From an uncultured Solibacteraceae bacterium (GTDB lineage Bacteria > Acidobacteriota > Terriglobia > 20CM-2-55-15), in NCBI GenBank assembly GCA_964584785.1, contig CAZPBY010000045.1, positions 2,024 through 66,023 on the forward strand: a stretch of DNA of 64,000 bases, written 5' to 3'. Below the pieces are notes generated by a model. That model was not told the origin of the DNA. It did not search any database and was given only the letters and a program-made list of their open reading frames with translations. Shown here one piece after another: positions 5,403 to 57,155 of the stretch. Within the stretch, counting starts at the first letter, position 1. Each line of letters begins with the position of its first letter. The position numbers and the translations under genes are program-made.

Positions 5403-5572
5403 CGCCCAGCGGACATCTATATTTAACGTTTGAGATGGGACAACCCAACGGTTGACATATTCAGAAGCGGTATTCGAGACATCTCCCATGGCGGGCGGTA
5501 GTGAGGTCTTTTGAAATTCTGCGCTGAATTCCTTCGAGCGTAATCCATTCCGCTTTTTGGCATACTCAAGAT

Positions 5573-5819: not shown

Positions 5820-5885
5820 TTTTGCTTGATTCGAGCTGGTAATAACCCCGATACTGCTCCGGTTTTTGATATCGCCCGTGATATT

Positions 5886-6167: not shown

Positions 6168-6186
6168 TAACAAAGGAGAAACCGAG

Positions 6187-6717: not shown

Positions 6718-6722
6718 ACGAT

Positions 6723-7013: not shown

Positions 7014-7028
7014 TTCATCCGCATCGCT

Positions 7029-7071
7029 AAAAAGTGGGAGCCATCGCGAAACTGGATGGTTCCCACTTTTT
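7029..7071. terminator. Bidirectional intrinsic terminator closing the hicA-hicB-X operon
   Basis: AAAAAGTGGGAGCCATC-9 nt loop-GATGGTTCCCACTTTTT: a 12-bp stem (one G-U) flanked by A5/T5 tracts. Confidence 0.75.
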
Positions 7072-7110
7072 GTTCTGACACTGCTGGAACGCTCAAGCAT
7101 AATAGATTTT

Positions 7111-7193
7111 ATGAATCGCCTGACTACTTCCGACCGCGCACAAGTATCCGCTGCTTGATTGATGGCAATTCCATTCCCGCAACCGAACGCATC
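7111..7193 (+). pseudogene. Frameshifted, truncated N-terminus of an IS1-like transposase
   Basis: ATG 7111 reads MNRLTTSDRAQV; after a 1-nt loss near 7147 it continues (I)RCLIDGNSIPATERI, resembling the recalled HTH start MNRLS.EKRAQII.CL.EGNSIRAT.R of IS1-like transposases. Similarity stops near 7193. Confidence 0.55.
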
Positions 7194-7375
7194 CGCAAGA
7201 GCGAGTCCAAACTAGATCGGCGGGAAATCAAAGGAACCCGCTACAGGTTGTCCCATCTCCAAGGTTCGATACAGATGTCCGATACTCCGGCCTTTCCCAA
7301 CTTGTTTGACTGGAAAATGTCCCCACAGTAACGTCACAGAATCCGGCTGAGTGGCAGGACAAGGGGACCTTTTGG

Positions 7376-37965: not shown

Positions 37966-38085
37966 ATTTGTGATTGCCGATTGGTGACTGATGATTGCGT
38001 AACCGAAGCCATAGGCCATTCGCGATCGGGAATCGGCGATGGCCTCAGTTCGCCAATCGCCGGTTACCAATCAGCCATCACAAAT
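37966..38085. repeat. Imperfect long palindrome between convergent genes (REP-like / possible terminator)
   Basis: ATTTGTGATTGCCGATTGGTGACTGATGATTG pairs imperfectly with CCAATCGCCGGTTACCAATCAGCCATCACAAAT; inner GGCCAT...ATGGCC. Confidence 0.6.
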
Positions 38086-38087
38086 GC

Positions 38088-39674
38088 TTACGGTTTCTTT
38101 GTTTGCGGCAGCTCCCCGCGCGTGCGCTGCACGCACTGGGCGGCTTTGCAGTTGTCGGCGAAGGGAGAGCCGAGCTTGATCAGGTGATCGACGACCGGCG
38201 GGTACTGGAGATTCCATTCCCGCGGGCCGTTCGCCATATCGGCGACGCTGTCGCCCTTTCCCGGTTCTGCGGCGGCGTCGGTGTCGCTGTTGCGGCCGTA
38301 GATCATGTCGGCTTGCACTTTGACGTTGGCGCCCTTCGAGACCAGATAGTCAATCAGCTCGATGTTGTTCATCAGCGCAGCGCCGTGAAGCGGCGTGTAG
38401 CCCTTGTCGTCTTTCGAGTTGACCTTCGCGTCGAGTTCTTCGATCAGATACTTGACCGTGGTGAGCCGTGCATCCGGCGCAAAATTGCTGGTTTGCGGCT
38501 GATATCCGAATCCTGCAGCGACCTGCAGCGGTGAGGAGCCGTGCGCGGTTGGAATATTCGGATCCGCGCCGTGCGCGACGAGCAAGCGCATGGCGGGAAT
38601 ATCGTTGGATTGAGCGGCGCGCCAGAATGCAGTTGCGCCGTCCGGATCGACCCAGTCGCCGTGGAAAGTGCGGAACCAAAGCTTCGGTCCCATCTTCGCG
38701 TTCGGATCCGCTCCGCGCTCGAGCAGCGCTGTCATTAATTCGAGGTGCGTCGTCTTTTCCTGTTCGTTGCTTGCCGCCGGATACCACGTTCGCGCGGCCC
38801 ATCCCTGATCGATGCTCGCGAACAGAGGCGTTAGCGCTCCAGTCGTTGAGAGATTAGGATTCGCCCCGTGATCGAGGAGGTACTTCGCGATGTCGAAATA
38901 TCCATTGATGATGGCCGTCGTGATCGGAGGCATCCTGTCCGTTCCGGACAACACATTGACGTCCGCGCCCGCCGCCACGAGTTCGCGAACAACGTCCGCC
39001 TGTCCTTCGCGCGCGGCAAGATGGAGAGCCGACATGCCGCCCAGCCAGGGGCCGGACATCTGACGCCGGTTCGGGTTGATGCCGTCACGTTTGTCGCGGG
39101 GATCGCGCGATTCGAGGACTTTCGACAGCACGTTGAGATCGGCGCCTTTCGCGGTCAGCAGCTTAATCACAGGCGCCGCGCTGACAGCCGACGCGTACAT
39201 CAGCGCGGTCTGGCCATTCATCGTGTCCGTCGCGTTGACGTTGGCCCCACGGTCGAGCAGCAGCTTCACGGCTTCGGGACTGCCCGAACCGGCCGCGAGC
39301 ATGAGAGGCGTGGTGCCTGCAGGAGTCGCGGCGTTGACGTCCGATCCGGCTTTGAGAAGCACATCGATGACCGGTGCACTCCCTGTCTTCGCGGCGATGA
39401 GCAGAGGCGTATAGTCGCCGAGACGCGTCGTGGCCTTGATGCTGGCGCCGGCCTGGACGAGAATTCGCGCCATGTCGACATCGTTGCGATAGGCGGCCCA
39501 GTGCAGCGCGGTCATGCCGTCACCCTGCGCCGTGTTGACGTCGGTTTTGCGGGCGATCAACGACTGCACCGTTGCCTTGTCGCCTTGCATCGCGGCGTCC
39601 GGAAGACGTGTGTCTCCGGCCGCAGGGCCCGCAAGCATTCCCATCAACAATGTCATTACGATTTGCGCAAACAT
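38088..39674 (-). CDS. Secreted ankyrin-repeat protein
   Basis: SD GGAGGAGG; repeats GMTALHWAA, YTPLLIAA, TTPLMLAA, QTALMYA, MSALHLAA, YTPLHGAA. Confidence 0.9.
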   Translation of the reverse strand: MFAQIVMTLLMGMLAGPAAGDTRLPDAAMQGDKATVQSLIARKTDVNTAQGDGMTALHWAAYRNDVDMARILVQAGASIKATTRLGDYTPLLIAAKTGSAPVIDVLLKAGSDVNAATPAGTTPLMLAAGSGSPEAVKLLLDRGANVNATDTMNGQTALMYASAVSAAPVIKLLTAKGADLNVLSKVLESRDPRDKRDGINPNRRQMSGPWLGGMSALHLAAREGQADVVRELVAAGADVNVLSGTDRMPPITTAIINGYFDIAKYLLDHGANPNLSTTGALTPLFASIDQGWAARTWYPAASNEQEKTTHLELMTALLERGADPNAKMGPKLWFRTFHGDWVDPDGATAFWRAAQSNDIPAMRLLVAHGADPNIPTAHGSSPLQVAAGFGYQPQTSNFAPDARLTTVKYLIEELDAKVNSKDDKGYTPLHGAALMNNIELIDYLVSKGANVKVQADMIYGRNSDTDAAAEPGKGDSVADMANGPREWNLQYPPVVDHLIKLGSPFADNCKAAQCVQRTRGELPQTKKP

Positions 39675-39700
39675 GTCGTCCTCCTCCAGCTGAGGTCCGT

Positions 39701-39784
39701 CACCTGGCCCGTCGCTACCCTCCGGGTTCTGACTTGCACGTTGCGACGATGTGCGGAACCCCGAGCGCAGCGACGGGCTTCGTG
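39701..39784. repeat. REP-like palindrome, copy 1 (intergenic, degenerate)
   Basis: GCCCGTCGCTACCCTCCGGGTTC...GAACCCCGAGCGCAGCGACGGGCTTCGTG; same family as 46366-46451 and 55452-55549. Confidence 0.8.
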
Positions 39785-39785
39785 C

Positions 39786-41156
39786 CTAAATGCTTATATC
39801 CCCCGTGCTATCGCCGACGTGATCGAGGTCCATGCCCAGTTTCTGCATCATCGTCAGCAGAATGTTGGCCTGCGGCGTTCCTTCCTTGCAGCGAACGTGC
39901 AGGTTTCCCTTGATCGCTCCATTCGCGTGGCCCGCGATTATCGCGGGTACTCGTTTGTGACCATGCACGTTTGAATTCGCCATCGCGCTGCCGTAGAAAA
40001 TGAGCGAGTGGTCGAGAAGGTTGCCGTCAGCGTCTTTCGTCTTCTGCAACTTGTCCAGGAAGTAGGCCAGCAGCCCGATATGGTAGCGATTGATCTTCGA
40101 CAGATCCAGGATCGACGAGGGAACGTCCTGATGATGCGACGCCGAATGGAATGGCGTTGTCGTACCGCTTTCCGGAAATACGCGATTCGATGTGTCGCGG
40201 CCGAGTTTCAACGTTGCGACTCGGGTGGTTTCCGCCGCGAAACCCAGCGCGATCAGATCCATCATCAATTTCGTATGATCGTCCCACGAGTCGGGAACCC
40301 CGACCGGCGCCGTTGGAACATCGCGATTCGGGTTGTTCGCGTTGTATGTTTCGATCGCCTCGATCCGGCGCTCGATCTCACGAACGTTTTCAAGGTATGC
40401 GTTCAGGCGGTTTCGATCCTGAGCGTCGAGATCCTTCATGAGCCTCGAGACATTGTGCGTTATGCCGTCGAGTACGCTCTTGCTCATCCTCCGGCGCGCG
40501 GCGCGATCCTCTTTCGAGCCGCCTGTGCCGAATAGCTGCTCAAACGCGGAGCGCGGATTCAGCGTCATCGGCAGCGGCGTGGTCGGCGACGACCAGCTGA
40601 TCGTGTTCATGTACACGCAGCTGTACATCCAGCCGCAGGATCCGGTCGCATCCTCGTTTTCCGTGCAAAGCTGGATCGAGGGAATCGGTGTGTCCTGACC
40701 GAACTTCTGCGCATACATCTGATCGATCGACGTGCCGCAATAGACGTCGGAGCCCAGCGTCTGCTTGGGGTGTGAAGCAGTGAGGAATACCGCCGCCGAA
40801 CGGAAGTGATCAGCGCCGACTTCTTCGGCAGTCAACGGATCGGCGGTGGAGCAATCCGTCATGCTGATGATGGTCGTGTAGTCTCGAAATGATTCGAGCG
40901 GCTTCACGATCATGCCGAAATCGAAGTCGCGTCCCTCCTTTTTCGGAATCAGCAAACCTTCGTTCGTTCCCCACTCGGTGCTTCCGGCCGAACCATGTAC
41001 GACCTCGATGCAAGCCAGACGGCTCCTGCCGGCCGCTGCCGTCTTCGACAACGGCGTTTGTGCGGGCACCATGGCTTCGAGGAAAGGCAAAGAGACGGCG
41101 GCACCCATACCTTGAAGGACCGTGCGTCTGGAAATGTGTCTTTTGGTTATAAACAT
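39786..41156 (-). CDS. DUF1552-family protein with Tat-like signal
   Basis: MFITKRHISRRTVLQGMGAAVSLPFLEAM; DHFRSAAVFLT; SIDQ; FHSASHH; LLDHSLIFYGS.M.NSN.H. Confidence 0.85.
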   Translation of the reverse strand: MFITKRHISRRTVLQGMGAAVSLPFLEAMVPAQTPLSKTAAAGRSRLACIEVVHGSAGSTEWGTNEGLLIPKKEGRDFDFGMIVKPLESFRDYTTIISMTDCSTADPLTAEEVGADHFRSAAVFLTASHPKQTLGSDVYCGTSIDQMYAQKFGQDTPIPSIQLCTENEDATGSCGWMYSCVYMNTISWSSPTTPLPMTLNPRSAFEQLFGTGGSKEDRAARRRMSKSVLDGITHNVSRLMKDLDAQDRNRLNAYLENVREIERRIEAIETYNANNPNRDVPTAPVGVPDSWDDHTKLMMDLIALGFAAETTRVATLKLGRDTSNRVFPESGTTTPFHSASHHQDVPSSILDLSKINRYHIGLLAYFLDKLQKTKDADGNLLDHSLIFYGSAMANSNVHGHKRVPAIIAGHANGAIKGNLHVRCKEGTPQANILLTMMQKLGMDLDHVGDSTGDISI

Positions 41157-41169
41157 GGCTTCGATCTCC

Positions 41170-43518
41170 TTACTGTACGCTCTCGCCGCGGACGATCCGC
41201 ATCTGAAACGGTTTGCTTTTGACGATTCCAAAGACGAATGACGAAAACCGATTGTTGGTTTTCGCGGCTTCCTGCGCGATTGCGCGAACCGTCGGCATGT
41301 CGCGGTAATCCAGCACGCGGCCTAATCCATACGCCAAAAGGTTTTCAGTGAAACTGCCGAGGAAAGCGTCGGACCGGTTCGCGATGGCCTGCCGAACGCC
41401 TGCCGGACTCTCGAGCTTCGTTCCGTCGTACATCACGGTCGAGGGATCGATCGCTTGTCCATTGTCCCTGGTTCTCCACAAACCAATGGCGTCGAAGTTC
41501 TCCATCGCCAGGCCGATCGGATCCATCATCTTGTGGCACGACGCGCAAGGCTCAACCTTGCGATGAAGCTCCATGCGCTCGCGCACCGACAGATTCTTTT
41601 CGTTCTCAACCGCCTCCTTCAGCTTGGGGACCGCGGGTGGCGGCGCCGGCGGCGGCGACCCGATCAGAACTTCCAGAACGTACTTGCCGCGAGCGACCGG
41701 TGATGTGCGATTCGCCAGCGAAGTCATCATGAGAATGCCGGATTTGCCGAGCAGGCCGTAGCGATTCGGATCCGTCAACTGGACGCGCCGGAAACGATTG
41801 CCGGGTTCGACGGGCAATTTGTAGTGGCGCGCCAGCACTTCGTCAACGTACGTGTAATCCGCCGTCAGCAGATCCAGAACGTTGCGGTCTTCGCTAGCGA
41901 TGCTCCCGAAGAAGAGTTCGACTTCGCGCCGCATCGATTCGCCCAGCGTCCGCGAGTATTCCGGGAAAATCGTCGGTTCGGGGACCGTGTCCTGAATGCT
42001 CTGCAATCGCAGCCACTGACGGGCGAAGTTTGTGGACAGCGTTTCCGATCGAGGATCGGCGATCATGCGCTTGACCTGCTGCTCGAGTATTGCGGGATCC
42101 TTGAGCTTGCCCTGCGTGGCAACAGTGATCAACTGATCGTCGGGCGCACTGCTCCACAGGAAGTACGACAACCGCGACGCCAGTTCGAGATCGCTGATCT
42201 TGTAGCTCTGTCCGGTTTTTACATTGCGGGGAACACGTTCGAAGCGGAACACGAATTCGGGATCGGCCAGGATGCCTTGAAGAGCCGTCCGGACTCCGGT
42301 CTCGAAGTCACCTTCCTTTCGGCCCGTCTGGTACAGCACCATCAAGCCTTCCATGTCTTCCGCAGCAACGGGACGTCTGAACGCTTGTTTCGCGAGGCGG
42401 GAGACAATCTCCGTGGCGCAGGGCTCCTCTTCAGAAGTCTTCGCCGGATGACAGGAGAAGATCCGCCGGCGGCTCGGCGTGTCGGAAATACCGCTGACCT
42501 TGAATGGACCGGTGATTGCCATCGTTTGCAGGTGGGGCAGCGCGGTCATCTGCGGATGGTTCGCAATGTCGGTGCTGACGAGTGTGTGTTCCACGAGCCG
42601 GTATTGATCCTGGATCGGTCCGTCGAAGTCCATCACGAATGCCGCCGCGACGCGATGTTGTCCAGCCTTGATCTTGATCGGATCGGAAATGATCGGCCCT
42701 TCGGCTTCCTGCATGTCGAGATCGATCTTGAATACTGCCACGCGCTCTCCATCGATCGAGACTTCGACCTGCTGGTTTTCGAGAGCCTTCGGAAGTTTTG
42801 AGCCGATGATGTTTCCGGTGAACCAGAAATGGAATGAAAGGTTGAACTTGTAATCGCCGTCCGCCGGGAACGTGTGCAGCACTGAAATGCCGCCTCGAGT
42901 TCCAAACGGCGTGCCTTCGACGTGGCGCATCTGGTTGGCGGTTCTGGGAACGTTATACGTCGTCATGGCCGGCGCAGCATCGCGGTCGCCGACGGCTTGA
43001 CGGCTGATCGTTTCAGCGGCTCTTGCATAACCCTGCATCAGAGCCGGCGTGATGGTCAGCGCATCCGCCATGTTGTCGAACGCACCGCTCCTCGCGTCGG
43101 GCGGCAGAAGTTCGGTGACATCGACGTCAATGCCGAGAAGATCGTGAACCGAATTTCGATACTCGGTGCGGTTCACTCGATGAAGGTCCGGCGCATCGAT
43201 AAACGGCTGCTGGGCAGCTGCAAGATCGATCTTCTTCTCGAGGCCGGCGGCAAACTGTTTCAGAGTGGCGGCGTCCGGTCGTCGAGCGCCTGCGGGCGGC
43301 ATCATGCCCGCTCGAACCTTGCGAATCACCTTCTCGATGCGGTCGGCGTGCTGATCGGGGTGCGCCAGATCAATCTCAGACCAGGAAAAGCCCCCCGATT
43401 TGAGCTTGTCGTTGTGACAGCCGGCGCAGTATTCGTTTACTAAGGCCGCTTCGTTTTGGGCAAGAGCAAAGGTGGACGTCAGAAGGAACAACGTACACAA
43501 GACCATCGCACGTTTCAT
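41170..43518 (-). CDS. DUF1592-family (planctomycete cytochrome c-like) protein
   Basis: Signal peptide; CAGCH and CASCH; LHRVNRTEYRNSVHDLL, ELASRLSYFLWSS.PD, TSPVARGKYVL, ENFDAIGLWR. Confidence 0.9.
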   Translation of the reverse strand: MKRAMVLCTLFLLTSTFALAQNEAALVNEYCAGCHNDKLKSGGFSWSEIDLAHPDQHADRIEKVIRKVRAGMMPPAGARRPDAATLKQFAAGLEKKIDLAAAQQPFIDAPDLHRVNRTEYRNSVHDLLGIDVDVTELLPPDARSGAFDNMADALTITPALMQGYARAAETISRQAVGDRDAAPAMTTYNVPRTANQMRHVEGTPFGTRGGISVLHTFPADGDYKFNLSFHFWFTGNIIGSKLPKALENQQVEVSIDGERVAVFKIDLDMQEAEGPIISDPIKIKAGQHRVAAAFVMDFDGPIQDQYRLVEHTLVSTDIANHPQMTALPHLQTMAITGPFKVSGISDTPSRRRIFSCHPAKTSEEEPCATEIVSRLAKQAFRRPVAAEDMEGLMVLYQTGRKEGDFETGVRTALQGILADPEFVFRFERVPRNVKTGQSYKISDLELASRLSYFLWSSAPDDQLITVATQGKLKDPAILEQQVKRMIADPRSETLSTNFARQWLRLQSIQDTVPEPTIFPEYSRTLGESMRREVELFFGSIASEDRNVLDLLTADYTYVDEVLARHYKLPVEPGNRFRRVQLTDPNRYGLLGKSGILMMTSLANRTSPVARGKYVLEVLIGSPPPAPPPAVPKLKEAVENEKNLSVRERMELHRKVEPCASCHKMMDPIGLAMENFDAIGLWRTRDNGQAIDPSTVMYDGTKLESPAGVRQAIANRSDAFLGSFTENLLAYGLGRVLDYRDMPTVRAIAQEAAKTNNRFSSFVFGIVKSKPFQMRIVRGESVQ

Positions 43519-43579: not shown

Positions 43580-43616
43580 AAAAAAATATCGTGGCGACGG
43601 GCTTCCTGCCGCCACG
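43580..43616 (-). terminator. Intrinsic terminator after the CRTAC1 gene
   Basis: Minus strand CGTGGCGGC-9 nt-GTCGCCACG followed by ATATTTTTTT. Confidence 0.7.
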
Positions 43617-43617
43617 T

Positions 43618-45249
43618 TTATCCCTGCGGTTCGATCCTCTTCAGGATTTGATCGGCCGGCTGGTTGGTTTCGTGGGTCTCGGCGCCGGAGGGCCAGACGA
43701 TGTCGATGGAGTCGATGGCCTTGGCGTTGCCCAGTCCGAAATGAACCCGAAGATCGTTTTGCGAGATGTAGCTCCCGCCGCTTCGCACGCTGCTCCATTG
43801 ATCGATGGCTCCCGCCCGAACGTGGATTCGCGCTCCGACAGCGGACCGGTTGCTCTTGCGGCCTTCCAGATCGAAGGTCACCCAGTTTCCCCGTCGTGAT
43901 CGATTGAGAAAGAGTACCGGCGGGCCATCGATCTGCGTGACCAGCACGTCTACTCCGCCATCGTTGTTAATGTCGCCCGCGATCGCTGACCGCGCCGCGA
44001 GACGGCCCGGTTCGCGGACTCCGGCCGGCTGCCCCAGCTCGACGAACCGGTTTCCGACATTCCGGAAGAGCTGCAGCCACTGGCGATAGGTTGTATTGAC
44101 GGGGTGAGCGTCGACGTCGGGATAGATGTGCCCGTTGGCGACGAACAAGTCCTTCAAGCCATCGTTGTCGAAATCTTCGAGGAGTGCGCCCCATTTCAAC
44201 ATCGGGATCGATGGACTGCCTAAGCCGGTTGCGTGAATTTGATCCGTGAACATCATGTTGCCGTCATTACGGAAAAGGTTGCTGACGTCATCGGAGAAAT
44301 TGGTGACGAAGATATCCGAACGCCCGTCATTGTTGTAGTCTCCGACCGCGACGCCCATGGACGCCTGGGCGCGCCCGTCCTCGCTCAACGCAACTCCCGC
44401 CTCGAGTCCGATCTCTTGGAACCGGCCATCGCCAAGGTTTTTGTACAGATAGTTAGCCGTCGAGTCGTTCGCAACGAAGAGATCCGGCCAGCCGTCGGCG
44501 TCGAAGTCTTCAAAGACGGCGGTAAAACTGTAGTGCGGTTCGCGGGCTTCAACTCCGGCCGCTTTGGTGACGTCCGTAAACGTGCCGTCGCCGTTGTTGT
44601 GATACAGAATGTTGCGCCCGCCCTGGAACCCGCCGGGACCACAGAACACCGGAACGCCCTTATAGCTGCAGCCCTGCCCTTTCGCCGATGGCGACGCCGG
44701 ATCGAATTCGATGTAGTTTGTGACGAACAGGTCGAGCCAGCCGTCGCGATCGTAATCGCCGAACGTGGCTCCGGCGCTGTATCCCGTTTTCCCGACGCCG
44801 GTGCGTTCGGTCACATCCACAAACGTGCCATTGCCGGCGTTGTGGTAGAGCGTATTGCGGCCGTAGTTCGTGATGTACAGATCGGTCCAGCCGTCGTTGT
44901 CGTAGTCGGCTGCGACCACCCCGAGGCCCCACCGAAGTTCTCTGACGCCGGCTTTGTCGGTGACATCGACGAACGTGCCGTTGCCCATGTTGCGGTACAG
45001 AGCGTTGCCCGCCGTATCATTCGCCTTTCGCGCGCCATTGACGAGATAGATATCGACGAATCCATCGCGGTCGTAGTCGAGAAATGCCGCGCCGCTGCCG
45101 TTCACGTCGGTGATCGCACTCTTGTCGGCGGAACCGAACACGTTCTGAAATCGAATGCCGGCTTTCGCTGTAATGTCTTCGAAGAGAATCGGTGAGTCCT
45201 GAAGAGGAAGAATGGCGAGCAGGACGGCACAGAAACAGAACCGCATCAT
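43618..45249 (-). CDS. CRTAC1-family protein (FG-GAP/VCBS-like propeller + ASPIC/UnbV)
   Basis: FEDITAKAGIRF; repeated DYDxDG..DL motifs; SNRSAVGARI; SGGSYISQND.RVHFGLG. The start overlaps the upstream TPR stop (ATGA). Confidence 0.9.
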   Translation of the reverse strand: MMRFCFCAVLLAILPLQDSPILFEDITAKAGIRFQNVFGSADKSAITDVNGSGAAFLDYDRDGFVDIYLVNGARKANDTAGNALYRNMGNGTFVDVTDKAGVRELRWGLGVVAADYDNDGWTDLYITNYGRNTLYHNAGNGTFVDVTERTGVGKTGYSAGATFGDYDRDGWLDLFVTNYIEFDPASPSAKGQGCSYKGVPVFCGPGGFQGGRNILYHNNGDGTFTDVTKAAGVEAREPHYSFTAVFEDFDADGWPDLFVANDSTANYLYKNLGDGRFQEIGLEAGVALSEDGRAQASMGVAVGDYNNDGRSDIFVTNFSDDVSNLFRNDGNMMFTDQIHATGLGSPSIPMLKWGALLEDFDNDGLKDLFVANGHIYPDVDAHPVNTTYRQWLQLFRNVGNRFVELGQPAGVREPGRLAARSAIAGDINNDGGVDVLVTQIDGPPVLFLNRSRRGNWVTFDLEGRKSNRSAVGARIHVRAGAIDQWSSVRSGGSYISQNDLRVHFGLGNAKAIDSIDIVWPSGAETHETNQPADQILKRIEPQG

Positions 45250-46328
45250 CGCGGGCGCTTTCGACCGGGCTTTTCGAGCGACTGGAACTCTCGAAGCAGC
45301 GCATCCGCTTTCTCGATGTTTCCCAGTTGACGACACGCCCGAGAGAGCGGATACAGCGCGCGACTGTACTCCGGGACGGAGGCGGGGATTCCGGATAGAG
45401 CCGCAGCCGCTTCGGCGGCGCGTTGCAGTCTCAGCAATGCCAGGCCCCGGACCAGCAGAACGGCCGGGACGTCGGGACTGAGTTTCTGCGCACGGTCGGC
45501 AAACGCCAGAGATTCGGTCGCCCGTCCACGATCGAGTTCGAGATCGGCGAGCGCGACAAGAGCGTCAACGCTTGCTGGATTCAGCTTCAGCGCCTTTTGC
45601 CATTCGCGCTCCGCGGCCTCTCCATCACCCAGACCTCTTTCCGCATGGCCGAGCCACAAGCTTCCTCGAGAATCATCAGGCGCCGACTTGACGAAGCCCA
45701 CAAAAGCATCGCGAGCCGCTTCCATCCGATCGAGGGAGTACCAGGCCTGGCCGAGGCGAAGTTGAATCTCGGGTGTGCGTTTGTCTTCAGTGACGGATAG
45801 CAACAGCTCGGCCGCGGCGGCATATTCCTCGCGTTCCGTCAGCAGCGTTGCGAGTTCCAGAGAGCCGGACGGACTGGAGGATGCGGATTGTCGAAAACGC
45901 GTGAGGTATGGCTGCGCGGAAGGGTAATCGTTCAATTCGAGATACGCCTTGGCAGTCAGGTAATCGAGCGCCGGCAAGTCCCCCATTCCCTTTCGCGCCG
46001 TTTCGATAAAACCCAGCGCGCCACTCGCATTTTTGGACTCGAGTTGAAGGAGTGCGGCGTTTAGCGCGGCTCTTGGATGATTCGGGTCGATGGCCAGCGC
46101 GTGTTCGATGGCGTCCTCGGCCGCGGCCCGGTCGCCGGCGCGTCGCAGAAGATCGGCGAGGTTGTTCCACGCTTCGACATGCCTGGGGTCTTGAGATACG
46201 GCTTTTCGATAGGCCTCGATCGCCTCGGCCGGCTTTCCAGCGGAGCCAAGCCGCACACCTGTTCCATACCACGCGTCGGCCGTTTGGATCAAAAGAAGGA
46301 TGGAAAGCACAAAGCCCGCAACGCTCAA
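45246..46328 (-). CDS. Secreted TPR protein
   Basis: TTG start preceded by GAGG; signal peptide; TPRs (EAIEAYRKAVSQDPRHVEAWNNL). Confidence 0.85.
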   Translation of the reverse strand: MSVAGFVLSILLLIQTADAWYGTGVRLGSAGKPAEAIEAYRKAVSQDPRHVEAWNNLADLLRRAGDRAAAEDAIEHALAIDPNHPRAALNAALLQLESKNASGALGFIETARKGMGDLPALDYLTAKAYLELNDYPSAQPYLTRFRQSASSSPSGSLELATLLTEREEYAAAAELLLSVTEDKRTPEIQLRLGQAWYSLDRMEAARDAFVGFVKSAPDDSRGSLWLGHAERGLGDGEAAEREWQKALKLNPASVDALVALADLELDRGRATESLAFADRAQKLSPDVPAVLLVRGLALLRLQRAAEAAAALSGIPASVPEYSRALYPLSRACRQLGNIEKADALLREFQSLEKPGRKRPR

Positions 46329-46356: not shown

Positions 46357-46365
46357 CAGAGATTT

Positions 46366-46451
46366 CCTCACGAAGCCCGTCGCTTGCGCTGCCATTCTTC
46401 GTGCCCGCGGTACCCAGCAGAACCCGGAGCGCAGCGACGGGCTTGGTGAGG
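46366..46451. repeat. REP-like palindrome, copy 2 (intergenic)
   Basis: CCTCACGAAGCCCGTCGCTTGCGCT...AGAACCCGGAGCGCAGCGACGGGCTTGGTGAGG. Confidence 0.8.
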
Positions 46452-46456
46452 AGACT

Positions 46457-48283
46457 TTACGTTTTCAACACGGGTTTGTGCGTGTGGAGCTGAGCGACGT
46501 CCTGAAACGATTTGCCCACAAACAGAATCTCGGTTTCCCTGAACGGAGGCCCATACAGAACGACACCTTGCGGTGTGCCCACGGGCGCATCCGGTGCCGG
46601 ATCCGTAAACGACGTCACGATGTTCAATCCCGGATAGCCGGCAGAATTCGTATTGCCCGTACCGCCTCCGGCTGGACCGCCACCACCACGGCCGCCGCGT
46701 CCGGCCGCTGGAGGCGCATCGGGCGCGCCTGCACCCGGCGGTGTTCCCGGTGCAGCACCGCGGCCACCACCGCCTCCACGCTGACCGCCGCCGGCCGCCG
46801 AGAAGTACACATCCACTCCGGAAGTTGCCTTGGCGAGATTCATCATCATCATCATTCGAATGCGCTGGCTCTGCAGATAGTCGACGACGTTCATCAGGCG
46901 CGCGGACTTGAAACCGTCGGCGCGGCCGGGATTGGTCATCTTCGCGACACCGCCGCTTCGAACAAGTTCATCGAAGAACGCGCCCTGCTCGTATGTGAAC
47001 CCTTCGACGACCTGGGGCAGGTTGTCGCTGGGAATCGTCAAGGGGATGAGCGTTGCGCCGAGTCCTTTTAGAACGTCGATCAGTTTTTCCGCGCCGGGAT
47101 TCTTCGTTGGACTATCCATTCCGGTAACGCCTATCCGGATTTTCTTCAGGTCGTATCGAGCCGGATTCCAATTGAACGGAATATCGGAAACGCTCATGTC
47201 GCGGCCATCGGGCTTTGCGATGACCGACATCACCATCGCGCAATCCTCGGCGTACCGGCACATCGGGCCGAGACGATCGTATGTCCAGCCGAGCGTCATC
47301 GCGCCGTGGCGGCTGATGCGGCCGAATGTCGGCCGCAGACCTGCGAGCCCATTGGTTCCGGATGGGCTGAGGATCGATCCCTGCGTTTCCGTTCCGATCG
47401 AGAACCCCACGCAGCCGGCCGACGTCGCCGATCCCGGACCCGCGGACGATCCGCTCGCGCTGCCGTAGTTCCAGGGGTTTTTCGTTTGCCCGCCGAACCA
47501 GTTGGCACCCTGCGCCAGTTCACCGGAGACGAGCTTGGCGATCAACACCGCTCCGCTTTCACGAAGCATCTCAACGACGCTCGCGTCGTAATCGAAGACC
47601 TGTTCCTTGTACGCGCCGGAACCCCATGTCGTCTTGTAGCCCTTCACGCTAATGATGTCCTTGCATCCCCAGGGGATTCCGTGCAACGGACTCTTAATCT
47701 TGCCGGCGGCCAGATCCGCATCCGCGGCTTTCGCCTGAGTCATCGCGAGCTCGTCGAGAAACGTCACAGTGTTCAACAGCTGGCCGTTGTAGCGGTGAAG
47801 CCGTTCAAGATACATCTTGGTCAGTTCGACGGATGAAACCTGCTTCGTTCGCAACAACTCGTGAAGATGACGAACCGGCCAGAACGCGACGTCCTCCAGA
47901 TTGCCCGGAACTTTCAGCGCCGGCACTTTACCGAGCGCGAACGGTTGCGGTACGCGGTTCACCACGACGCCGGGCACGATGGCGTTGATATGGAACGGCG
48001 GGGAAACATCGTTCGGGATGTGAAACGATCGCATGGCCTTCGCCCGCGTCAGGTTTTGATTCGCGGTGTTGACCATTTGTTGGCGCTCTTCCTCAGAGAA
48101 TTCCACGCCACCCAGTTTTAATGAAGTCGTGAGCATATCGAGCGTGATCTGCTGTGCTCCGGTTTCCTGCATTTTCCCCCAGAGGATCCCCGGCACCAGC
48201 GTCGCGCCCAGTCCCACGCTCGAGAAATAGGCCATGAATCGTCTTCGGCTTTCCTCAATTCGAATCGGCTTTTTCTTTCTCAT
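46457..48283 (-). CDS. Tat-exported amidase-signature amidase with N-terminal extension
   Basis: SD GGAG; SRRRFM twin-arginine motif; WGCKDI, GSSAG, GTETQGSI; Gly/Pro-rich C-terminal insert. Confidence 0.9.
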   Translation of the reverse strand: MRKKKPIRIEESRRRFMAYFSSVGLGATLVPGILWGKMQETGAQQITLDMLTTSLKLGGVEFSEEERQQMVNTANQNLTRAKAMRSFHIPNDVSPPFHINAIVPGVVVNRVPQPFALGKVPALKVPGNLEDVAFWPVRHLHELLRTKQVSSVELTKMYLERLHRYNGQLLNTVTFLDELAMTQAKAADADLAAGKIKSPLHGIPWGCKDIISVKGYKTTWGSGAYKEQVFDYDASVVEMLRESGAVLIAKLVSGELAQGANWFGGQTKNPWNYGSASGSSAGPGSATSAGCVGFSIGTETQGSILSPSGTNGLAGLRPTFGRISRHGAMTLGWTYDRLGPMCRYAEDCAMVMSVIAKPDGRDMSVSDIPFNWNPARYDLKKIRIGVTGMDSPTKNPGAEKLIDVLKGLGATLIPLTIPSDNLPQVVEGFTYEQGAFFDELVRSGGVAKMTNPGRADGFKSARLMNVVDYLQSQRIRMMMMMNLAKATSGVDVYFSAAGGGQRGGGGGRGAAPGTPPGAGAPDAPPAAGRGGRGGGGPAGGGTGNTNSAGYPGLNIVTSFTDPAPDAPVGTPQGVVLYGPPFRETEILFVGKSFQDVAQLHTHKPVLKT

Positions 48284-49822: not shown

Positions 49823-49864
49823 GCAAAAACGGTATCCCGATTTCCGGTCAAATTGGGTCCGAGA

Positions 49865-50004
49865 AATTTAGAAAGTGGACGAAGTTAAATGCGAATCCGA
49901 AAACACAAATTTCGAATTGGACTGCCGCTCCCGGTAGCAAGCTCAGGTTCAATTCAAGATTTGTGATTTCGGATTGGCATTTAACTTCGTCCACTTTCTA
50001 AATT
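49865..50004. repeat. AT-rich long palindrome (55-bp arms, 30-nt loop), MITE/REP-like
   Basis: Arms 49865-49919 and 49950-50004 are complementary with 4 mismatches. Confidence 0.85.
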
Positions 50005-50005
50005 C

Positions 50006-51655
50006 CTATTCCTTCGGTTCCGTAATAGTGACGATTTGTCGGGGATGAGCGGTCTGTGTCTGGACGCGGCCGGAGGGCCAGTGGACTGTCAGGGTGACGT
50101 CGCCGGTCCAGTTGCCGAGACCGAAGTGCGTCCGATAGTCGTTGGACGACAGGTAGCTTCCGCCGGCGGTGACCTCCCGTGTCTGCTTCGTTTTTCCGGC
50201 CGCCAGTTCGATTTTCGCTCCGATACCGTTCACGTTGGATTTGGTGCCGGCGAGCTTTACCGTCAGCCATGAAATCCTGGCAGCGCCTTCGTTATGCAGC
50301 AACGCCGGACTACCGCCGCAATTCGTGACGAGCAGATCGAGGCCGCCATCGTTGTCGAAGTCTCCGATCGCGAGGCCGCGGCTGACTTGAGGTTTCATCA
50401 AAATAGCGCCGTGAGCCGCGGCGTTTTCCTTGAACACGCCGCCGTTGTTTTCGAACAGGAGTTTCCGTTGAGCGTATTGGGCGCCCTGGCGTATCTGCGC
50501 GGCGTTGTCGAGGATGTGGCCGTTCGCCACGAACATGTCAAGGTCGCCGTCGTTATCGAAGTCGAGCAGCCCAACGCCAAATCCCACAAACGGACGCGTG
50601 GCGAGTTGCACGCCGGTCCGAGTGCTGGCATCCTCGAAGATTCCGTTACCCATGTTGCGATACACATCGAGGTATTCGAAATCGAGATTCGTGACCATGA
50701 TGTCCGGCCGGCCATCGCCGTCGATGTCGCCGGAAAATGTGCCCATGCCGGCTTGCGGCTGCCCGTTCTCATCCAGAGCCACACCGCTTTCGAGCGCGAC
50801 TTCCGAAAACGTTCCGTCTTTGTTGTTTCGAAACAGAAAATTCGCGACCGAATCGTTGGCCACGTAAACGTCGGGATAGCCGTCGTCGTTGTAATCGAGG
50901 ACCGTCACGCCCAGACCCTTGCCGGGATGCGAAGCGAGCCCGGCCTTGCTGCTGACGTCCGTAAACGTGCCGTCACCGTTGTTGTGATATAGCAAGTTCG
51001 AAAGACCGTTATAGATCTGCGGTGTGCAGTAACCTCGAATGCCGCGTTCGGACAGAGGGCCGCAGGTTTTGTTGTTGTCGAACGAGTGATCGACGTAACG
51101 CGTCACCCAAAGATCGAGCAGCCCGTCCTTGTCATAATCGAGGAAGACTGCACTCGCACTCCATTGACCATTCCCTGCCACGCCGGCTTTTGCCGTCACA
51201 TTCGAAAACGTGCCGTCGCCGTTGTTTCGGTAAAGAATGTTGGTGCCGTTGAAATTCGTGATGAAGAGATCGTCGTGACCGTCGTTGTCGTAGTCGCCCA
51301 CTGCGGCGCCCATGCCGTACTCCAGGTTCGGCTCGATGCCGGCTTTCGCGGTGACGTCCTCGAAAGTCCCGTCACGGCGATTGTGATACAGAGCGTGATT
51401 GAGATTTCGGTTTCGCGAGGTGCCCGGGACCCAGCCGCCATTGATCAGGAAAATATCGAGGAAGCCGTCGCCGTCGTAGTCGATGAATGCGGCGCCCGAT
51501 CCCATCGTTTCGACCAGGTACTTTTGTGGAGTCGCCGAATTCTCGTGATGAAAGTTGATGCCGGCTTTCGCCGTGACGTCGACGAACGTGACCACCGGAG
51601 GACTTGCCTGCAGCGCGATCCATACGGCAAGACACAACTCTGCCGGCCGTCTCAT
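50006..51655 (-). CDS. CRTAC1-family protein (ASPIC/UnbV)
   Basis: FVDVTAKAGINFHH; DYDGDG/DFDNDG repeats; SNVNGIGAKI; AGGSYLSSND.RTHFGLG. Confidence 0.9.
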   Translation of the reverse strand: MRRPAELCLAVWIALQASPPVVTFVDVTAKAGINFHHENSATPQKYLVETMGSGAAFIDYDGDGFLDIFLINGGWVPGTSRNRNLNHALYHNRRDGTFEDVTAKAGIEPNLEYGMGAAVGDYDNDGHDDLFITNFNGTNILYRNNGDGTFSNVTAKAGVAGNGQWSASAVFLDYDKDGLLDLWVTRYVDHSFDNNKTCGPLSERGIRGYCTPQIYNGLSNLLYHNNGDGTFTDVSSKAGLASHPGKGLGVTVLDYNDDGYPDVYVANDSVANFLFRNNKDGTFSEVALESGVALDENGQPQAGMGTFSGDIDGDGRPDIMVTNLDFEYLDVYRNMGNGIFEDASTRTGVQLATRPFVGFGVGLLDFDNDGDLDMFVANGHILDNAAQIRQGAQYAQRKLLFENNGGVFKENAAAHGAILMKPQVSRGLAIGDFDNDGGLDLLVTNCGGSPALLHNEGAARISWLTVKLAGTKSNVNGIGAKIELAAGKTKQTREVTAGGSYLSSNDYRTHFGLGNWTGDVTLTVHWPSGRVQTQTAHPRQIVTITEPKE

Positions 51656-52887: not shown

Positions 52888-55446
52888 ATGAAATTGAAAT
52901 CCGCGGCGGGTATTGTCTGGATCGCAGCGCTGCTGAACGGCGCGTATTTGCTCGCGTTCGGCGATCCGACGCTGGCGTATTTCCTCAGCATCATTCTTCA
53001 CCTTGTCCTCGGAGTTCTGCTCGTCATTCTTGTAGCCTTTGCCTGGCGGAACGCCGGAGCGTTGCTGCTCGTTGCCATCGGTCTCGCGGCCGGAGTCGGG
53101 GTTGCGTTATTCATCGTTGGCGGAACCAGCAATCACTCAACGACCCTTTGGGCCCACGTTGCGGCCGCGTTTCTTGCGACGGTCATTCTGGGCGCGAAGC
53201 AGGATTCGAGGCGCGTCGTTGTTCCGGTCATGGCGGTGATCATGGCGCTGCCGTTCCTGCCTTTTAGCGACAACCGTTCCATCATTGCGAATCCGTCCGT
53301 GCCGCCGGACAGCATGGATGGCGAAGGCGGCGGGAAGAACGGCCTCTTCTTTCCCTCTTCCATCGAAACCACGAGCGGCAGCCACGTTCGGGCGGACTTC
53401 ATCATGGATTCAAAAGCGTGCGCGGCGTGCCATGCGGAGATTTACGCGGAGTGGCAGGCGTCGATGCATCATCTGTCGTCCTTCAATAATCCGTTCTACC
53501 GGAAGTCGATTGAATACATGCAGCCGATCACCGGTGTTCCATCCACGAAATGGTGCGCAGGCTGTCATGATCCTGCGGTTCTTCTGAATGGAATGATGGA
53601 CCGCCCGGTCAACGAAATCGCCGACACGCCCGAAGGTCAATCCGGCATGGGCTGCCTTTCCTGCCATGCGATCGCAAGGGTCAAAAGCACCATGGGCAAC
53701 GCGGACTTCGTGATCGACGAATCGAAGTGGCCGCGTCTGTTCAGCTTCCTCACGCGAATCAATTCGAAGCCGCATCGCCGGGCGTTCCTGAAAAGTTTTC
53801 ATACGGAACAACCGGCCGAATTCTGTTCGGCCTGTCACAAAGTGCATCTGGATGTTCCCGTGAACAGCTACCGGTGGATTCGCGGATTCGACGAATACGA
53901 CAACTGGCAGGGCAGTGGCGTCTCCGGACAGGGCGCGCGGTCCTTCTATTATCCGCAGGTTTCGCAGACCTGCGTCGGCTGTCACATGCCGATCATGCCG
54001 GCCAGGGATCCCGCTGCGCGTGACGGCAAGATCCGGTCGCACTTTTTCCCGGGGGCAAACACCGCCGTACCTGTTGCCATTCATGATCGCGAACATCTCG
54101 AGATCAATGAGCGCTTTCTCAAGGCGAACAAAATGCGCGTCGACATCTTCGCCGCATCGACCGTAACTCAGGTCGCTGCGAATCAGCCGTCACAGCCGGC
54201 AGCTTCAACGATGTTCGCAACAGGCGAAGAGTCGGACGAAAAGCTACCGCGTTACGATTCTGCCGCGGCCGCGCCTGTCATCGCTCCGTTGAACAAGACC
54301 AGGCGGCTCTTCAAACCCGGTGACGACGTGCGCATCGACGTTGTGGTGCGAACGTTGGCGCTTGGACACTTTTTCCCCGCCGGAACCGTTGACGCATTCG
54401 ACACGTGGCTCGAACTGCGTGCCACCGACGATGCCGGCCGCGTCGTTTTCTGGAGCGGCCGCGCGGCGGACGACGGCCGCGGACCCGTGGATCCGGCGGC
54501 GCATTTTTACCGCTCTTTGCAGATCGATGGCGAAGGCAATCCCATCAACAAACGGAACGCATGGGCGTCGCGTGCCGTCGTCTACGTGAATCTCATTCCG
54601 CCGGGCGCTGCGGATGTGGCGCACTACCTTTTACGCATTCCAAAGAACGCGACCGGAATGATTCATCTCGAAGCGAAGCTCAACTACCGCAAGTTCACCT
54701 GGTTTTATTCGCACTTTGCGTTCGAGGGCAAACCGGAGACGCCGGATATCCCTATCGTCACGCTTGCTTCCGCCGTAACGGACATCTGTGTCGGGCCGGT
54801 TACCGCGGCCACGGACACGACCATCACGGAAATCGACGGCGAACGCTGGAACGATTACGGTATCGCGCTGCTGCGCCAGGGCGATCTCTCGGGCGCTCTT
54901 TACGCGTTCGAGCAGGTCACGAAGATCAAGCCTCAATACCCGGACGGTTTCGTCAACGTGGCGCGCGTGCTGGTGGAAGAAGGTGAAACCGCCGAGGCCA
55001 TCAAGTGGACCGACAGAGCCATACAACTCGATCCGAAGATCGGCCGAGCCCACTTCTTCCGCGGTCTGGCGCTCAAGGCAGACGGTGATTATGATGGCGC
55101 GCTTCGAGAGTTTCAGGCCGTCGAGGCGCAGTTTCCGAAAGATCGCGTGAATCTGAATCAGATCGGCAGGATTTATTTTCTCAAACGTGATTACAACGCG
55201 GCGATTGGGTGGTTCAAGCGAACGTTAACGATTGATCCTGAAGACGTGTCGGCTCACTACAACCTGATGTTGAGCTATCGCGGCTTGAATGATCTGCCGC
55301 GCAGCGCGGCCGAAGAGAAGTTGTATCTGCGCTTCAAAGCCGATGAATCCGCGCAGACCATGACGGGCCAATACCGGCTGGATCACCCCATCGATAACAA
55401 CGAGCGGCAACCGATTCATTTGCACGAAGGGGCGGTTGCTCCATGA
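52888..55446 (+). CDS. Membrane-anchored multihaem cytochrome c (5 CxxCH, c554-like) fused to C-terminal TPRs
   Basis: Several N-terminal TM helices; CAACH, CAGCH, CLSCH, CSACH, CVGCH; TPRs (WNDYGIALLRQGDLSGAL...). Confidence 0.85.
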   Translation: MKLKSAAGIVWIAALLNGAYLLAFGDPTLAYFLSIILHLVLGVLLVILVAFAWRNAGALLLVAIGLAAGVGVALFIVGGTSNHSTTLWAHVAAAFLATVILGAKQDSRRVVVPVMAVIMALPFLPFSDNRSIIANPSVPPDSMDGEGGGKNGLFFPSSIETTSGSHVRADFIMDSKACAACHAEIYAEWQASMHHLSSFNNPFYRKSIEYMQPITGVPSTKWCAGCHDPAVLLNGMMDRPVNEIADTPEGQSGMGCLSCHAIARVKSTMGNADFVIDESKWPRLFSFLTRINSKPHRRAFLKSFHTEQPAEFCSACHKVHLDVPVNSYRWIRGFDEYDNWQGSGVSGQGARSFYYPQVSQTCVGCHMPIMPARDPAARDGKIRSHFFPGANTAVPVAIHDREHLEINERFLKANKMRVDIFAASTVTQVAANQPSQPAASTMFATGEESDEKLPRYDSAAAAPVIAPLNKTRRLFKPGDDVRIDVVVRTLALGHFFPAGTVDAFDTWLELRATDDAGRVVFWSGRAADDGRGPVDPAAHFYRSLQIDGEGNPINKRNAWASRAVVYVNLIPPGAADVAHYLLRIPKNATGMIHLEAKLNYRKFTWFYSHFAFEGKPETPDIPIVTLASAVTDICVGPVTAATDTTITEIDGERWNDYGIALLRQGDLSGALYAFEQVTKIKPQYPDGFVNVARVLVEEGETAEAIKWTDRAIQLDPKIGRAHFFRGLALKADGDYDGALREFQAVEAQFPKDRVNLNQIGRIYFLKRDYNAAIGWFKRTLTIDPEDVSAHYNLMLSYRGLNDLPRSAAEEKLYLRFKADESAQTMTGQYRLDHPIDNNERQPIHLHEGAVAP

Positions 55447-57155
55447 TTCGTTGTGGCGTCACGAAGCCCGTCGCTGCGCTCCGGGTTCTGTTAGCTATCG
55501 CCGTCGTGTGCGGAACCCGGAGCGCAGCGACGGGCTTCGTGACGCCACAGATTCAATTCGTCGACATCACTCAAAAGGCCGGGATTCAGTTCACACACAA
55601 CAACGGCGCAACGGGGAAGAAGTATCTCCCGGAGACGCTCGGAGCGGGGGCCGCCTTCCTCGATTTCAACAACGACGGTTTGCAGGACATTCTGCTCATC
55701 AACGGCAAAGACTGGGGTCCTTCGCCGCAGAAGCGGACGACTTCAAAGCTGTATCAGAATAACGGCGACCGCACGTTCACCGAGGTCACAGCCAAATCCG
55801 GACTCGATCTGCCCGTGTACGGCATGGGCGTCGCTGTTGCGGACTACGACAACGACGGAAATGTGGACGTTTACATCACGGCGATCGACGGCGATCACCT
55901 CTTCCACAACGAAGGGAAAGGAAAGTTCAAAGATGTGACAACGGCGGCGGGAATCTCCAACGCCAGCTTCGGCACCAGCGCGGCGTGGTTCGATTACGAC
56001 GGCGATGGAAAAGTGGATCTGTTCGTCGCGAATTATGTTCAATGGACACCGGAAACCGACATCCGCTGTTCTCTGGATGGCCGAACGAAATCGTACTGCA
56101 CGCCGGAATCGTACAAGGGCGTCTCGTCAAAGCTGTATCGCAACAAGGGCAACGGCACTTTCGAAGATACGACTCGAGCCGCCGGCCTTTATGAGCCGGC
56201 GTCCAAGAGTCTTGGCGTGACCATTGTCGACATCGACGGCGACGGCTGGCCCGACATCCTCGTTGCGAACGACACGCAGCCCAACAAGCTGTACCGCAAT
56301 CAGAAGAACGGCACGTTTCGCGAAGAAGGCGTGCGATCGGGCGTTGCGTTCAGTGAAGAAGGCCTGGCCAGAGGCGCGATGGGCGTGGACTGGTCGGATT
56401 ACGATGCATCCGGCGCGCCGAGCATTGCGATCGGAAACTTCACCGGCCAGATGCTCGGCCTCTACCACAACGAAGGCAACGGCCTGTTCGTCGACGAGGC
56501 GCCGCGTTCTTCAATCGGGCGAGCCACCTTGCTGAGTCTCGCGTTTGGTTTGTTCTTCTTTGATTACGACCTGGATGGAAAGCCGGATCTTTTCGTCGTC
56601 AACGGACACATTGAGGATCAGATCGAAAAGATCCAGCCTCGCGTGAAGTACCGTCAGCCGCCGCACCTTTTTCACAACTCCGGCAATCACCGGTTTGAGG
56701 ACATGGCCGCGCAGGTTGGTCCGGGACTCGAACGTCCGATCGTCGGCCGGGGCGCCGCTTACGGCGACATTGATAATGATGGAGCGCTGGATATCCTGCT
56801 CACCACGAACGGCGGGCCGGCTTATCTGTACCGCAATCAGAATGCGACTTCGAATCACGTGCTGAAAGTGAGGACTGTCGGAACCAAAGCGAATCGCGAT
56901 GGCATCGGGGCGCGAGTCCGTGTTCATACCAGGGACGGCTGGCAGTGGCAGGTGGTGAAGAGCGGCTCGAGCTATTGTTCGCAGAGCGAACTGCCGCTGA
57001 CGTTTGGTCTGGGCGCGGCGATCGCCGCCGACACCGTGGAAATCTATTGGCCGAATGGCGGCAAGGAAACATTCAGCAGCGTCCTCGCGGATCAGTTCAT
57101 CACGTTGAAGGAAGGCCTGGGCGTCACCGCCCAGAGGCCGCTCATGATCAGGTAG
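55443..57155 (+). CDS. CRTAC1-family protein (ASPIC/UnbV)
   Basis: ATGA overlap with the upstream gene; FVDITQKAGIQF; DYDNDG repeats; ANRDGIGARV; SGSSYCSQSELPLTFGLG. Confidence 0.9.
   Translation: MIRCGVTKPVAALRVLLAIAVVCGTRSAATGFVTPQIQFVDITQKAGIQFTHNNGATGKKYLPETLGAGAAFLDFNNDGLQDILLINGKDWGPSPQKRTTSKLYQNNGDRTFTEVTAKSGLDLPVYGMGVAVADYDNDGNVDVYITAIDGDHLFHNEGKGKFKDVTTAAGISNASFGTSAAWFDYDGDGKVDLFVANYVQWTPETDIRCSLDGRTKSYCTPESYKGVSSKLYRNKGNGTFEDTTRAAGLYEPASKSLGVTIVDIDGDGWPDILVANDTQPNKLYRNQKNGTFREEGVRSGVAFSEEGLARGAMGVDWSDYDASGAPSIAIGNFTGQMLGLYHNEGNGLFVDEAPRSSIGRATLLSLAFGLFFFDYDLDGKPDLFVVNGHIEDQIEKIQPRVKYRQPPHLFHNSGNHRFEDMAAQVGPGLERPIVGRGAAYGDIDNDGALDILLTTNGGPAYLYRNQNATSNHVLKVRTVGTKANRDGIGARVRVHTRDGWQWQVVKSGSSYCSQSELPLTFGLGAAIAADTVEIYWPNGGKETFSSVLADQFITLKEGLGVTAQRPLMIR
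55452..55549. repeat. REP-like palindrome, copy 3: perfect 37-bp arms inside the signal-peptide coding region
   Basis: 55452-55488 TGTGGCGTCACGAAGCCCGTCGCTGCGCTCCGGGTTC is the exact reverse complement of 55513-55549. Confidence 0.95.

Follow-up and report, generated by a model that had tools for sequence, protein, structure and literature searches.

A hairpin repeat within the first codons of a CRTAC1-family gene

We analyzed a 64,000-nt stretch of contig CAZPBY010000045.1 from an uncultured, rock-dwelling Solibacteraceae bacterium (hereafter the window), in which a long perfect palindrome lies inside the beginning of a CRTAC1-family gene, directly behind a multihaem cytochrome gene. The palindrome is one copy of a large dispersed repeat family and, when read from the start codon that the gene shares with its orthologues, it encodes a predicted signal peptide. 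The two genes involved are, in window coordinates:

52888 to 55446, forward strand: upstream open reading frame (ORF), a multihaem cytochrome gene with TPR repeats (Cytochrome_C554 and TPR Pfam matches)
55443 to 57155, forward strand: CRTAC1-family gene of 570 amino acids, start ATG 55443 (FG-GAP_3 repeats and UnbV_ASPIC)

The FG-GAP_3 and UnbV_ASPIC domains identify the 570-amino-acid product as a CRTAC1-type protein, for which the contig index gave no exact match. Its ATG at 55443 overlaps the TGA of the cytochrome gene (55444-55446), forming a 4-nt ATGA overlap. Outside the palindrome the gene is intact and under long-term, strong purifying selection, with a dN/dS of 0.045 for the part encoding the mature protein when compared with an orthologue of 85% identity.

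An inverted-repeat search returned a single inverted repeat within 55300-55700, with 37-nt arms that are 100% complementary and lie 24 nt apart; a 34-nt arm pattern gave no chance matches in 100 shuffles. This element, copy A of the family (55452-55549), begins 9 nt past the CRTAC1 ATG and is in frame with it. Its parts and the features predicted over it are:

55452 to 55488, forward strand: left arm, identical to the family consensus; encodes residues 4-15 (CGVTKPVAALRV), the predicted basic n-region
55489 to 55512, forward strand: loop of 24 nt; encodes LLAIAVVC, most of the predicted hydrophobic core; no confirmation in Logan contigs
55513 to 55549, forward strand: right arm; encodes GTRSAATGFVTP, the predicted c-region, with a candidate S-A-A cleavage motif ending at 55529
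55443 to 55529, forward strand: predicted signal peptide, residues 1-29, with features within the range of 116 homologues
55444 to 55555, forward strand: predicted mRNA hairpin, -103.1 kcal/mol, z = -11.7

The search, together with codon reading, bears out the arms, loop and encoded peptides described in an earlier reading of the window made without database searches (the sequence-only reading). Residues 1-14 (MIRCGVTKPVAALR) comprise the three codons that precede the element (MIR) and the left arm, and the full hydrophobic core, VLLAIAVVC, spans 55485-55511 and is essentially loop-derived. The UG of the AUG, shared with the UGA stop of the upstream gene, is base-paired at the foot of the predicted hairpin stem. 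Copy A does not look like an intrinsic terminator, as no U-run follows 55549, where the sequence is CAGAUUCAAUUCGUCG.

The repeat family

Copy A is a member of a large dispersed family of hairpin-forming repeats. The window contains three full copies and one truncated copy, and the family core GCGACGGGCTTC occurs nine times in it with at most one mismatch, compared with 1.1 occurrences expected. The sequence-only reading had listed two further intergenic copies and had noticed the core within a terminator at 43594; we recovered all of these, with slightly extended boundaries for the two full copies:

39698 to 39786, no strand assigned: copy B, intergenic, 2 nt past the stop of the minus-strand gene 39786-41231
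46365 to 46452, no strand assigned: copy C, intergenic, about 5 nt past the stop of the minus-strand gene 46457-48283; inner left arm degenerate
43581 to 43616, reverse strand: truncated copy, outer arm only, 2 nt past the stop of the minus-strand gene 43618-45336

Copy B also sits upstream of a strong Shine-Dalgarno sequence and the ATG of the minus-strand gene 38088-39674. The truncated copy forms a hairpin of -20 kcal/mol followed by a U-run, a terminator-like arrangement that a simple terminator scan of the window had passed over. Internally deleted elements of this kind, reduced to the outer stem (CACGAAGCCC...GGGCTTCGTG), also occur on two metagenome contigs (L053 3842-3871 and L106 4329-4358).

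The family is far more abundant outside the window. Across four rock-metagenome runs that contain this locus, 180-266 contigs per run end in family arms, and the summed arm depth is 750-2050, compared with 4-7 for the unique flanks of copy A; the loose ends beyond the arms are mutually discordant, which means that the arms occupy many different loci. A 25-nt arm pattern matched 93 metagenome contigs, nearly all from one other metagenome assembly, on which there were 92 hairpin elements with both arms, besides some 25 arms that are single or degenerate. The consensus arm derived from them is TGAAACGTGGCGTCACGAAGCCCGTCGCTGCGCTCCGGGTTC; arms are about 42 nt long, with conservation fading about 13 nt outside the core (position -13), and loops range from 19 to 42 nt, including a 24-nt class (consensus TGACAGTTTTCGCCGTAACGTGCA) that is found in both orientations. 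Most elements lie 0-30 nt past the stops of long ORFs, often with such a stop on both sides, and copies B and C share this placement just past stop codons.

We looked for features that would assign the family to a known class of mobile or structural element. There is no sign of target-site duplication, direct repeats being enriched at no offset pair beyond what the conserved termini explain, and single arms fold no better than shuffled sequences (z = -0.4 and +0.7). Rfam contains no known family that matches, giving sub-threshold miRNA-type hairpin matches only. Probing the window and the 93 loci (about 590 kb) for RAYT and IS200 sequences by tblastn gave no match below E = 1, which is a weak test.

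A search of genome contigs with an 18-mer of the core was discarded, all 39 matches being chance hits in unrelated phyla to a pattern that is too short. Two of these chance matches (L002 5290-5340 and L003 1340-1400) lie in a different, widespread motif, GTCATCCTGAGCGCAGCGA..., which occurs in unrelated Acidobacteria and Opitutae metagenome-assembled genomes and is unrelated to the family studied here.

Further candidate coding copies were also considered and rejected. Many frames through family elements are open into the downstream gene, yet each of these genes has its own start and N-terminus past the element, and one copy with a similar flank and a hydrophobic reading (L085) is plainly intergenic. 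Single arms do occur in frame inside genes. The arm at L058 4342-4400, with an exact 29/29 core and a loop-like start, lies in ORF 1585-5709, a gene for a 1374-amino-acid Lhr-type helicase, where the arm-encoded LHEARRCAP aligns with LHAAKRALP of the solved Mycobacterium Lhr (7LHL); rather than an insertion, this arm could be coding sequence native to the gene, or even the origin of the repeat. Another (L120 6317-6345) lies in an aryl-CoA ligase gene (ORF 5871-7478), where by comparison with solved homologues the arm-encoded part replaces a variable segment without adding length, and another (L123 4371-4399) in a gene for a 785-amino-acid membrane protein (ORF 2591-4948, minus strand).

The start codon and the orthologous loci

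The position of the CRTAC1 start codon decides whether copy A is coding, and we examined it by comparison with 120 retrieved homologues. The conserved motif F-x-D-[IV]-T with at least 12 preceding residues was present in 117 of them, and every one of the 60 N-termini inspected had a hydrophobic signal ahead of this motif. The same upstream gene and the same 4-nt ATGA overlap were found in three orthologous loci with a readable junction (L040, 85% identity; L041/L042, 81%; L137/L138, 77%). Aligned at the DNA level with an orthologue, the window gene has the same ATGA, and homology returns at PQIQFVD, in the last bases of the right arm. The conserved overlap and the point at which homology resumes identify ATG 55443 as the ancestral start.

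Two further in-frame start codons, GTG 55506 and GTG 55539, leave no hydrophobic core, and past the palindrome no start occurs before a TTG at residue 80, which already lies in the conserved domain, so the possibility raised in the sequence-only reading that the true start lies beyond 55549 finds no usable codon there. Only ATG 55443 keeps both the hydrophobic core and the conserved domain. The two arguments first offered for this start, the ATGA overlap and the need for a signal peptide, are thus strengthened by conservation of the overlap in orthologues and by the signals in the homologues inspected.

The orthologues also indicate what the element displaced. Comparison with N-termini that lack the repeat, as proposed in the sequence-only reading, shows that the orthologues P0002, P0004 and P0009 carry ordinary signal peptides. 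Three codons (MIR) precede the element and none separates it from the conserved mature sequence; the aligned orthologue has an 18-residue signal at the same place, the ancestral hydrophobic core is gone from the window gene, and the length difference between the two is a multiple of three. This comparison indicates that the repeat replaced the ancestral signal peptide and was not simply inserted into it. With synonymous sites saturated relative to the nearest orthologue (dS = 1.6), the replacement steps cannot be reconstructed. A MAFFT alignment that paired the loop with the MAFAF codons of the orthologue suggested that the loop was a relic of the ancestral signal, an idea we rejected because the loop is of a family class found in both orientations.

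Some details of the junctions bear on how the element may have arrived. The GCCACA of the window may be ancestral or element-derived, GCCAC being the end of the element consensus too and CCACAA the orthologue's sequence; it may reflect microhomology of the target or of the element's end. On the left side, ATGA also fits the TGAAA end of the repeat, and may likewise represent junction microhomology. Just past the right arm, window 55545-55555 and L040 2127-2137 have two synonymous differences, CAA to CAG and ATC to ATT, each bringing the window sequence closer to the terminal consensus of the repeat, ACGTTTCA, again a possible sign of junction microhomology.

In one further orthologue (L136, 78% identity), an unrelated palindromic family occupies the same cytochrome/CRTAC1 junction (3511-3665). 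There, stops interrupt the frame that begins at the ancestral ATG; the CRTAC1 frame runs open across the entire element, and no canonical start lies between the element and the retained hydrophobic core. This second family has 61-nt arms that are 90-93% complementary around a loop of 24-33 nt, and it is also represented in the window (49862-50007), between two minus-strand genes. The cytochrome/CRTAC1 junction is evidently a recurrent target at which N-terminal remodelling is tolerated. At the P0008 locus (80% identity), the upstream gene and the CRTAC1 orthologue are 111 nt apart with no overlap, and the N-terminus called there, MAVTLGKCPGDRRRSVFPSSTRRGGAKRRGG..., resembles a translation of non-coding or repeat sequence, which makes this a possible third remodelled junction.

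The predicted signal peptide

Scored with a signal-peptide heuristic, the N-terminus read from ATG 55443 has a Sec-type layout: MIRCGVTKPVAALR with a charge of +3, VLLAIAVVC with a mean Kyte-Doolittle value of 3.42, and GTRSAA. The putative cleavage site is placed by the -3/-1 rule alone. The values below are given with the 5-95% range of the 116 other homologues that have a scorable N-terminus:

Length before the motif: window gene 38, homologues 21-51
Best 9-residue hydrophobicity: window gene 3.42, homologues 2.11-3.39 (window gene at the top)
Charge of the n-region: window gene +3, homologues 0-5
Spacing from core to motif: window gene 15, homologues 6-22

To see how unusual this reading is for the family, we compared 184 translations, taking 92 elements in both orientations and in the frame used in copy A. 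Copy A ranks first of the 184 for 9-residue hydrophobicity (3.42, compared with 1.77 +/- 0.54), and in the opposite orientation it is joint last. Its loop differs from the loop-class consensus at eight of 24 positions, and by codon reading all but one of these changes are non-synonymous (T to L, V to A, F to I, T to V, R to G); substituting eight positions at random attains the observed hydrophobicity in about 0.1% of trials (P about 0.001), a comparison in which the loop-class consensus may not be the true ancestor and which is to be read knowing that loops vary in other copies too. The family consensus in the same frame already encodes the semi-hydrophobic LTVFAVTC.

Interpretation and alternatives

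We infer that ribosomes starting at the conserved ATG translate the repeat, that the resulting peptide acts as an export signal and that this translation is coupled to that of the upstream gene, and we give this explanation a probability of roughly 0.6. Under it, a hairpin repeat family that normally settles directly 3' of stop codons would have landed, as copy A, behind the stop of the cytochrome/TPR gene. Because the CRTAC1 start overlaps that stop in the ATGA, the family's usual position past a stop would here fall within the first CRTAC1 codons, where the repeat would have replaced the ancestral signal segment. Copy A has the single orientation and reading frame, and a loop whose length is a multiple of three, from which a Sec-type signal would result, in which the left arm serves as the basic n-region, the loop as the hydrophobic core and the right arm as the c-region with S-A-A, and the protein would still be made from the ancestral ATG 55443 and exported. 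In the mRNA, the hairpin would sequester part of the AUG, and ribosomes ending the upstream gene would melt the base of the stem and reinitiate, resulting in obligate translational coupling. The proposal of the sequence-only reading that a selfish repeat was exapted as an export signal is to be held as probable rather than established, for an insertion that may be very recent and a loop that independent reads do not cover.

A stronger version of this explanation, which seems to us possible and still doubtful, is that the element has been domesticated: selection would have tuned the loop, the arms would have been kept complementary by hairpin-templated repair or by selection, and the hairpin would now serve as both signal peptide and obligate coupling switch. 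If so, CRTAC1 output would be tied to the upstream cytochrome gene, and palindromic repeats that target stops would repeatedly give rise to new N-termini where genes overlap. The element at L136 suggests an independent second insertion at the same junction, in line with such a recurrent source.

Several observations weigh against translation and export of the repeat-encoded peptide. Other family copies beside gene starts all have the start and N-terminus downstream of the element, and nothing points to a coding role for the family in general. In a search of a set of 5.8 billion proteins, the encoded peptide resembled one 50-amino-acid protein only, and no RNA run was found that holds the CRTAC1 gene. 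A hairpin of -103 kcal/mol starting at the AUG could block translation rather than tune it. Copy A alone among 90 copies has perfect arms, and they equal the consensus. It may thus have inserted very recently, and an intact ORF would then tell little or nothing about present function. Finally, the inner 38 nt of the element (55482-55519, the loop and 7 nt of each arm) matched no Logan contig from the four runs at a likeness of at least 93%, and the source assembly is the sole record of the hydrophobic-core sequence.

Some of these points would be expected if copy A were a recent disruptive insertion that destroyed the native signal and/or blocked translation, leaving a young impaired allele with a coincidentally signal-like peptide. 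The full 37/37 complementarity of the arms, the inclusion of part of the AUG in an extremely stable hairpin and the missing RNA evidence all fit such an allele, and a signal-like reading needs little when the consensus is already semi-hydrophobic. The loop changes are nonetheless directional and place copy A first of 184; the frame has been kept open, with a length difference from the orthologue that is a multiple of three; the ancestral core has been wholly lost, which is beyond the effect of a single simple insertion; and no contig joint in any of the four runs bypasses the element. On balance we regard a disruptive insertion as unlikely.

The gap in the Logan contigs might instead point to an assembly artefact, in which the loop, the inner arms or the symmetry arose through repeat collapse or k-mer correction to the consensus, and the true sequence may be out of frame or non-hydrophobic. 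The arms are exactly those of the high-depth consensus, the loop words of 55482-55519 are in no indexed run, and the loops of other copies at similar depth are present in Logan contigs. On the other hand, both flanks and the 30 outermost nt of each arm are reproduced without mismatch in independent Logan contigs from the four runs, and the join reproduces conserved synteny. The loop of copy A has no match of at least 93% in any other copy and was therefore not borrowed from another locus, and copies B and C on the same contig were not "corrected". The dropout is most likely explained by the combination of low depth (4-7x) and a perfect hairpin, and we consider an artefact very improbable.

Translation from GTG 55539 or GTG 55506, which would leave the repeat intergenic or in the 5' untranslated region and the protein without a signal peptide, has in its favor that most REPs at ORF N-termini are held to be annotation artefacts (PMC3733652), that other family copies lie upstream of genuine starts and that a GGAG lies 16 nt upstream of GTG 55539, but it is scarcely credible, since that spacing is too long, both GTGs are buried in the stem, the resulting proteins (MCGTRS... 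or MTPQIQ...) have no hydrophobic core while all homologues inspected have signal peptides, and the ancestral ATGA start is conserved.

Other repeats in the window

Two more repeats were seen in the window. A third long palindrome (37966-38085) has 60-nt arms that are 75% complementary, with no spacer, and lies between the ORFs 36501-37955 (plus strand) and 38088-39674 (minus strand). Self-BLAST also revealed two overlapping direct repeats of about 184 nt with 81.5% identity (18111-18291 and 18243-18426) within 18111-18426.

Implications

If copy A is translated as we propose, it would illustrate in nature how, where genes overlap, a selfish hairpin repeat that targets gene ends can remake the start of the gene that follows, and its sequence suggests that little may be needed to make an export signal. 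The locus poses the question of whether a perfect 37-bp hairpin within the first 35 codons can be translated, and also whether such a hairpin makes expression strictly dependent on the upstream gene. For genome annotation, it would be an exception to the rule of thumb by which N-terminal repeats in ORFs are put down to wrongly called start codons. Independently of copy A, the family is a previously undescribed and very abundant repeat family in an acidobacterial lineage.

Comparison with known systems

The sequence-only reading described the repeat as REP-like (repetitive extragenic palindrome), and this label fits in some respects and fails in others. Like REP, BIME and REPIN elements, the family has a high copy number, forms long hairpins from inverted pairs, is mostly extragenic and lacks target-site duplications, and it is placed just 3' of stops between co-directional or convergent genes (PMC3733652). 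Unlike REPs, its single arms form no stem-loops of their own and have no GTAG head; in the weak test made with our probes, no RAYT gene was detected in the window or the 93 loci. CGTC is conserved at arm positions -3 to +1, without the short 8-9 bp stem described for CGTC REPs (PMC3733652). Di Nocera et al. (2013; PMC3733652) reported REPs near 3' ends, intragenic REPs and REPs at ORF N-termini, regarding most of the N-terminal cases as start-codon errors.

The same authors described moderately abundant repeats with long terminal inverted repeats (TIRs) in Acidobacteria, often present as dimers and linked to TIRYT tyrosine transposases (PMC3733652). Our family agrees with these in phylum and architecture, a comparison made by description, and no TIRYT gene flanked by family arms was seen. 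Its TIRs of about 42 nt also recall miniature inverted-repeat transposable elements (MITEs) such as Correia/NEMIS, which are short and non-autonomous and occasionally fuse to ORFs, but unlike MITEs it shows no target-site duplication at any offset and no parent insertion sequence was seen.

For palindromic repeats inside genes, the sequence-only reading cited Rickettsia. According to the accounts of Ogata et al. (2000) given in PMC3733652 and PMC2759123, Rickettsia palindromic elements (RPEs) are found both between genes and in frame within them, and PMC3733652 relates that N-terminally RPE-decorated proteins have been reported as expressed. Copy A, which we liken to RPEs by description, similarly lies in frame in a conserved ORF whose homologues lack the repeat. 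RPEs, however, are present in numerous genes, chiefly as internal insertions contributing an extra peptide segment, whereas a single coding copy emerged from the roughly 95 examined here, and copy A replaces a functional module, the signal peptide, without adding a loop to the protein.

Another precedent is the RU-2 repeat of Yersinia pestis, of the YPAL/ERIC type, which in an in silico analysis by Delihas (2007; PMC2759123) forms part of the predicted signal peptide of YPO1552, whose homologues in other genera have unrelated signal peptides. A repeat-derived predicted signal peptide is therefore precedented as a concept, by RU-2 and by the RPEs. In YPO1552, the repeat supplies residues 1-30 of a predicted 41-residue signal in a small hypothetical protein, whereas the hairpin of copy A provides predicted n-, h- and c-regions in a conserved, enzyme-like protein of 570 amino acids, at a conserved ancestral overlapping start; both cases are sequence predictions. 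What is new here is the repeat family and the phylum in which it occurs, a full predicted n/h/c signal from one perfect hairpin in a well-conserved gene, the fixing of the start codon by comparison of orthologues, the ranking of copy A by hydrophobicity within its family, and a second independent insertion at the same junction.

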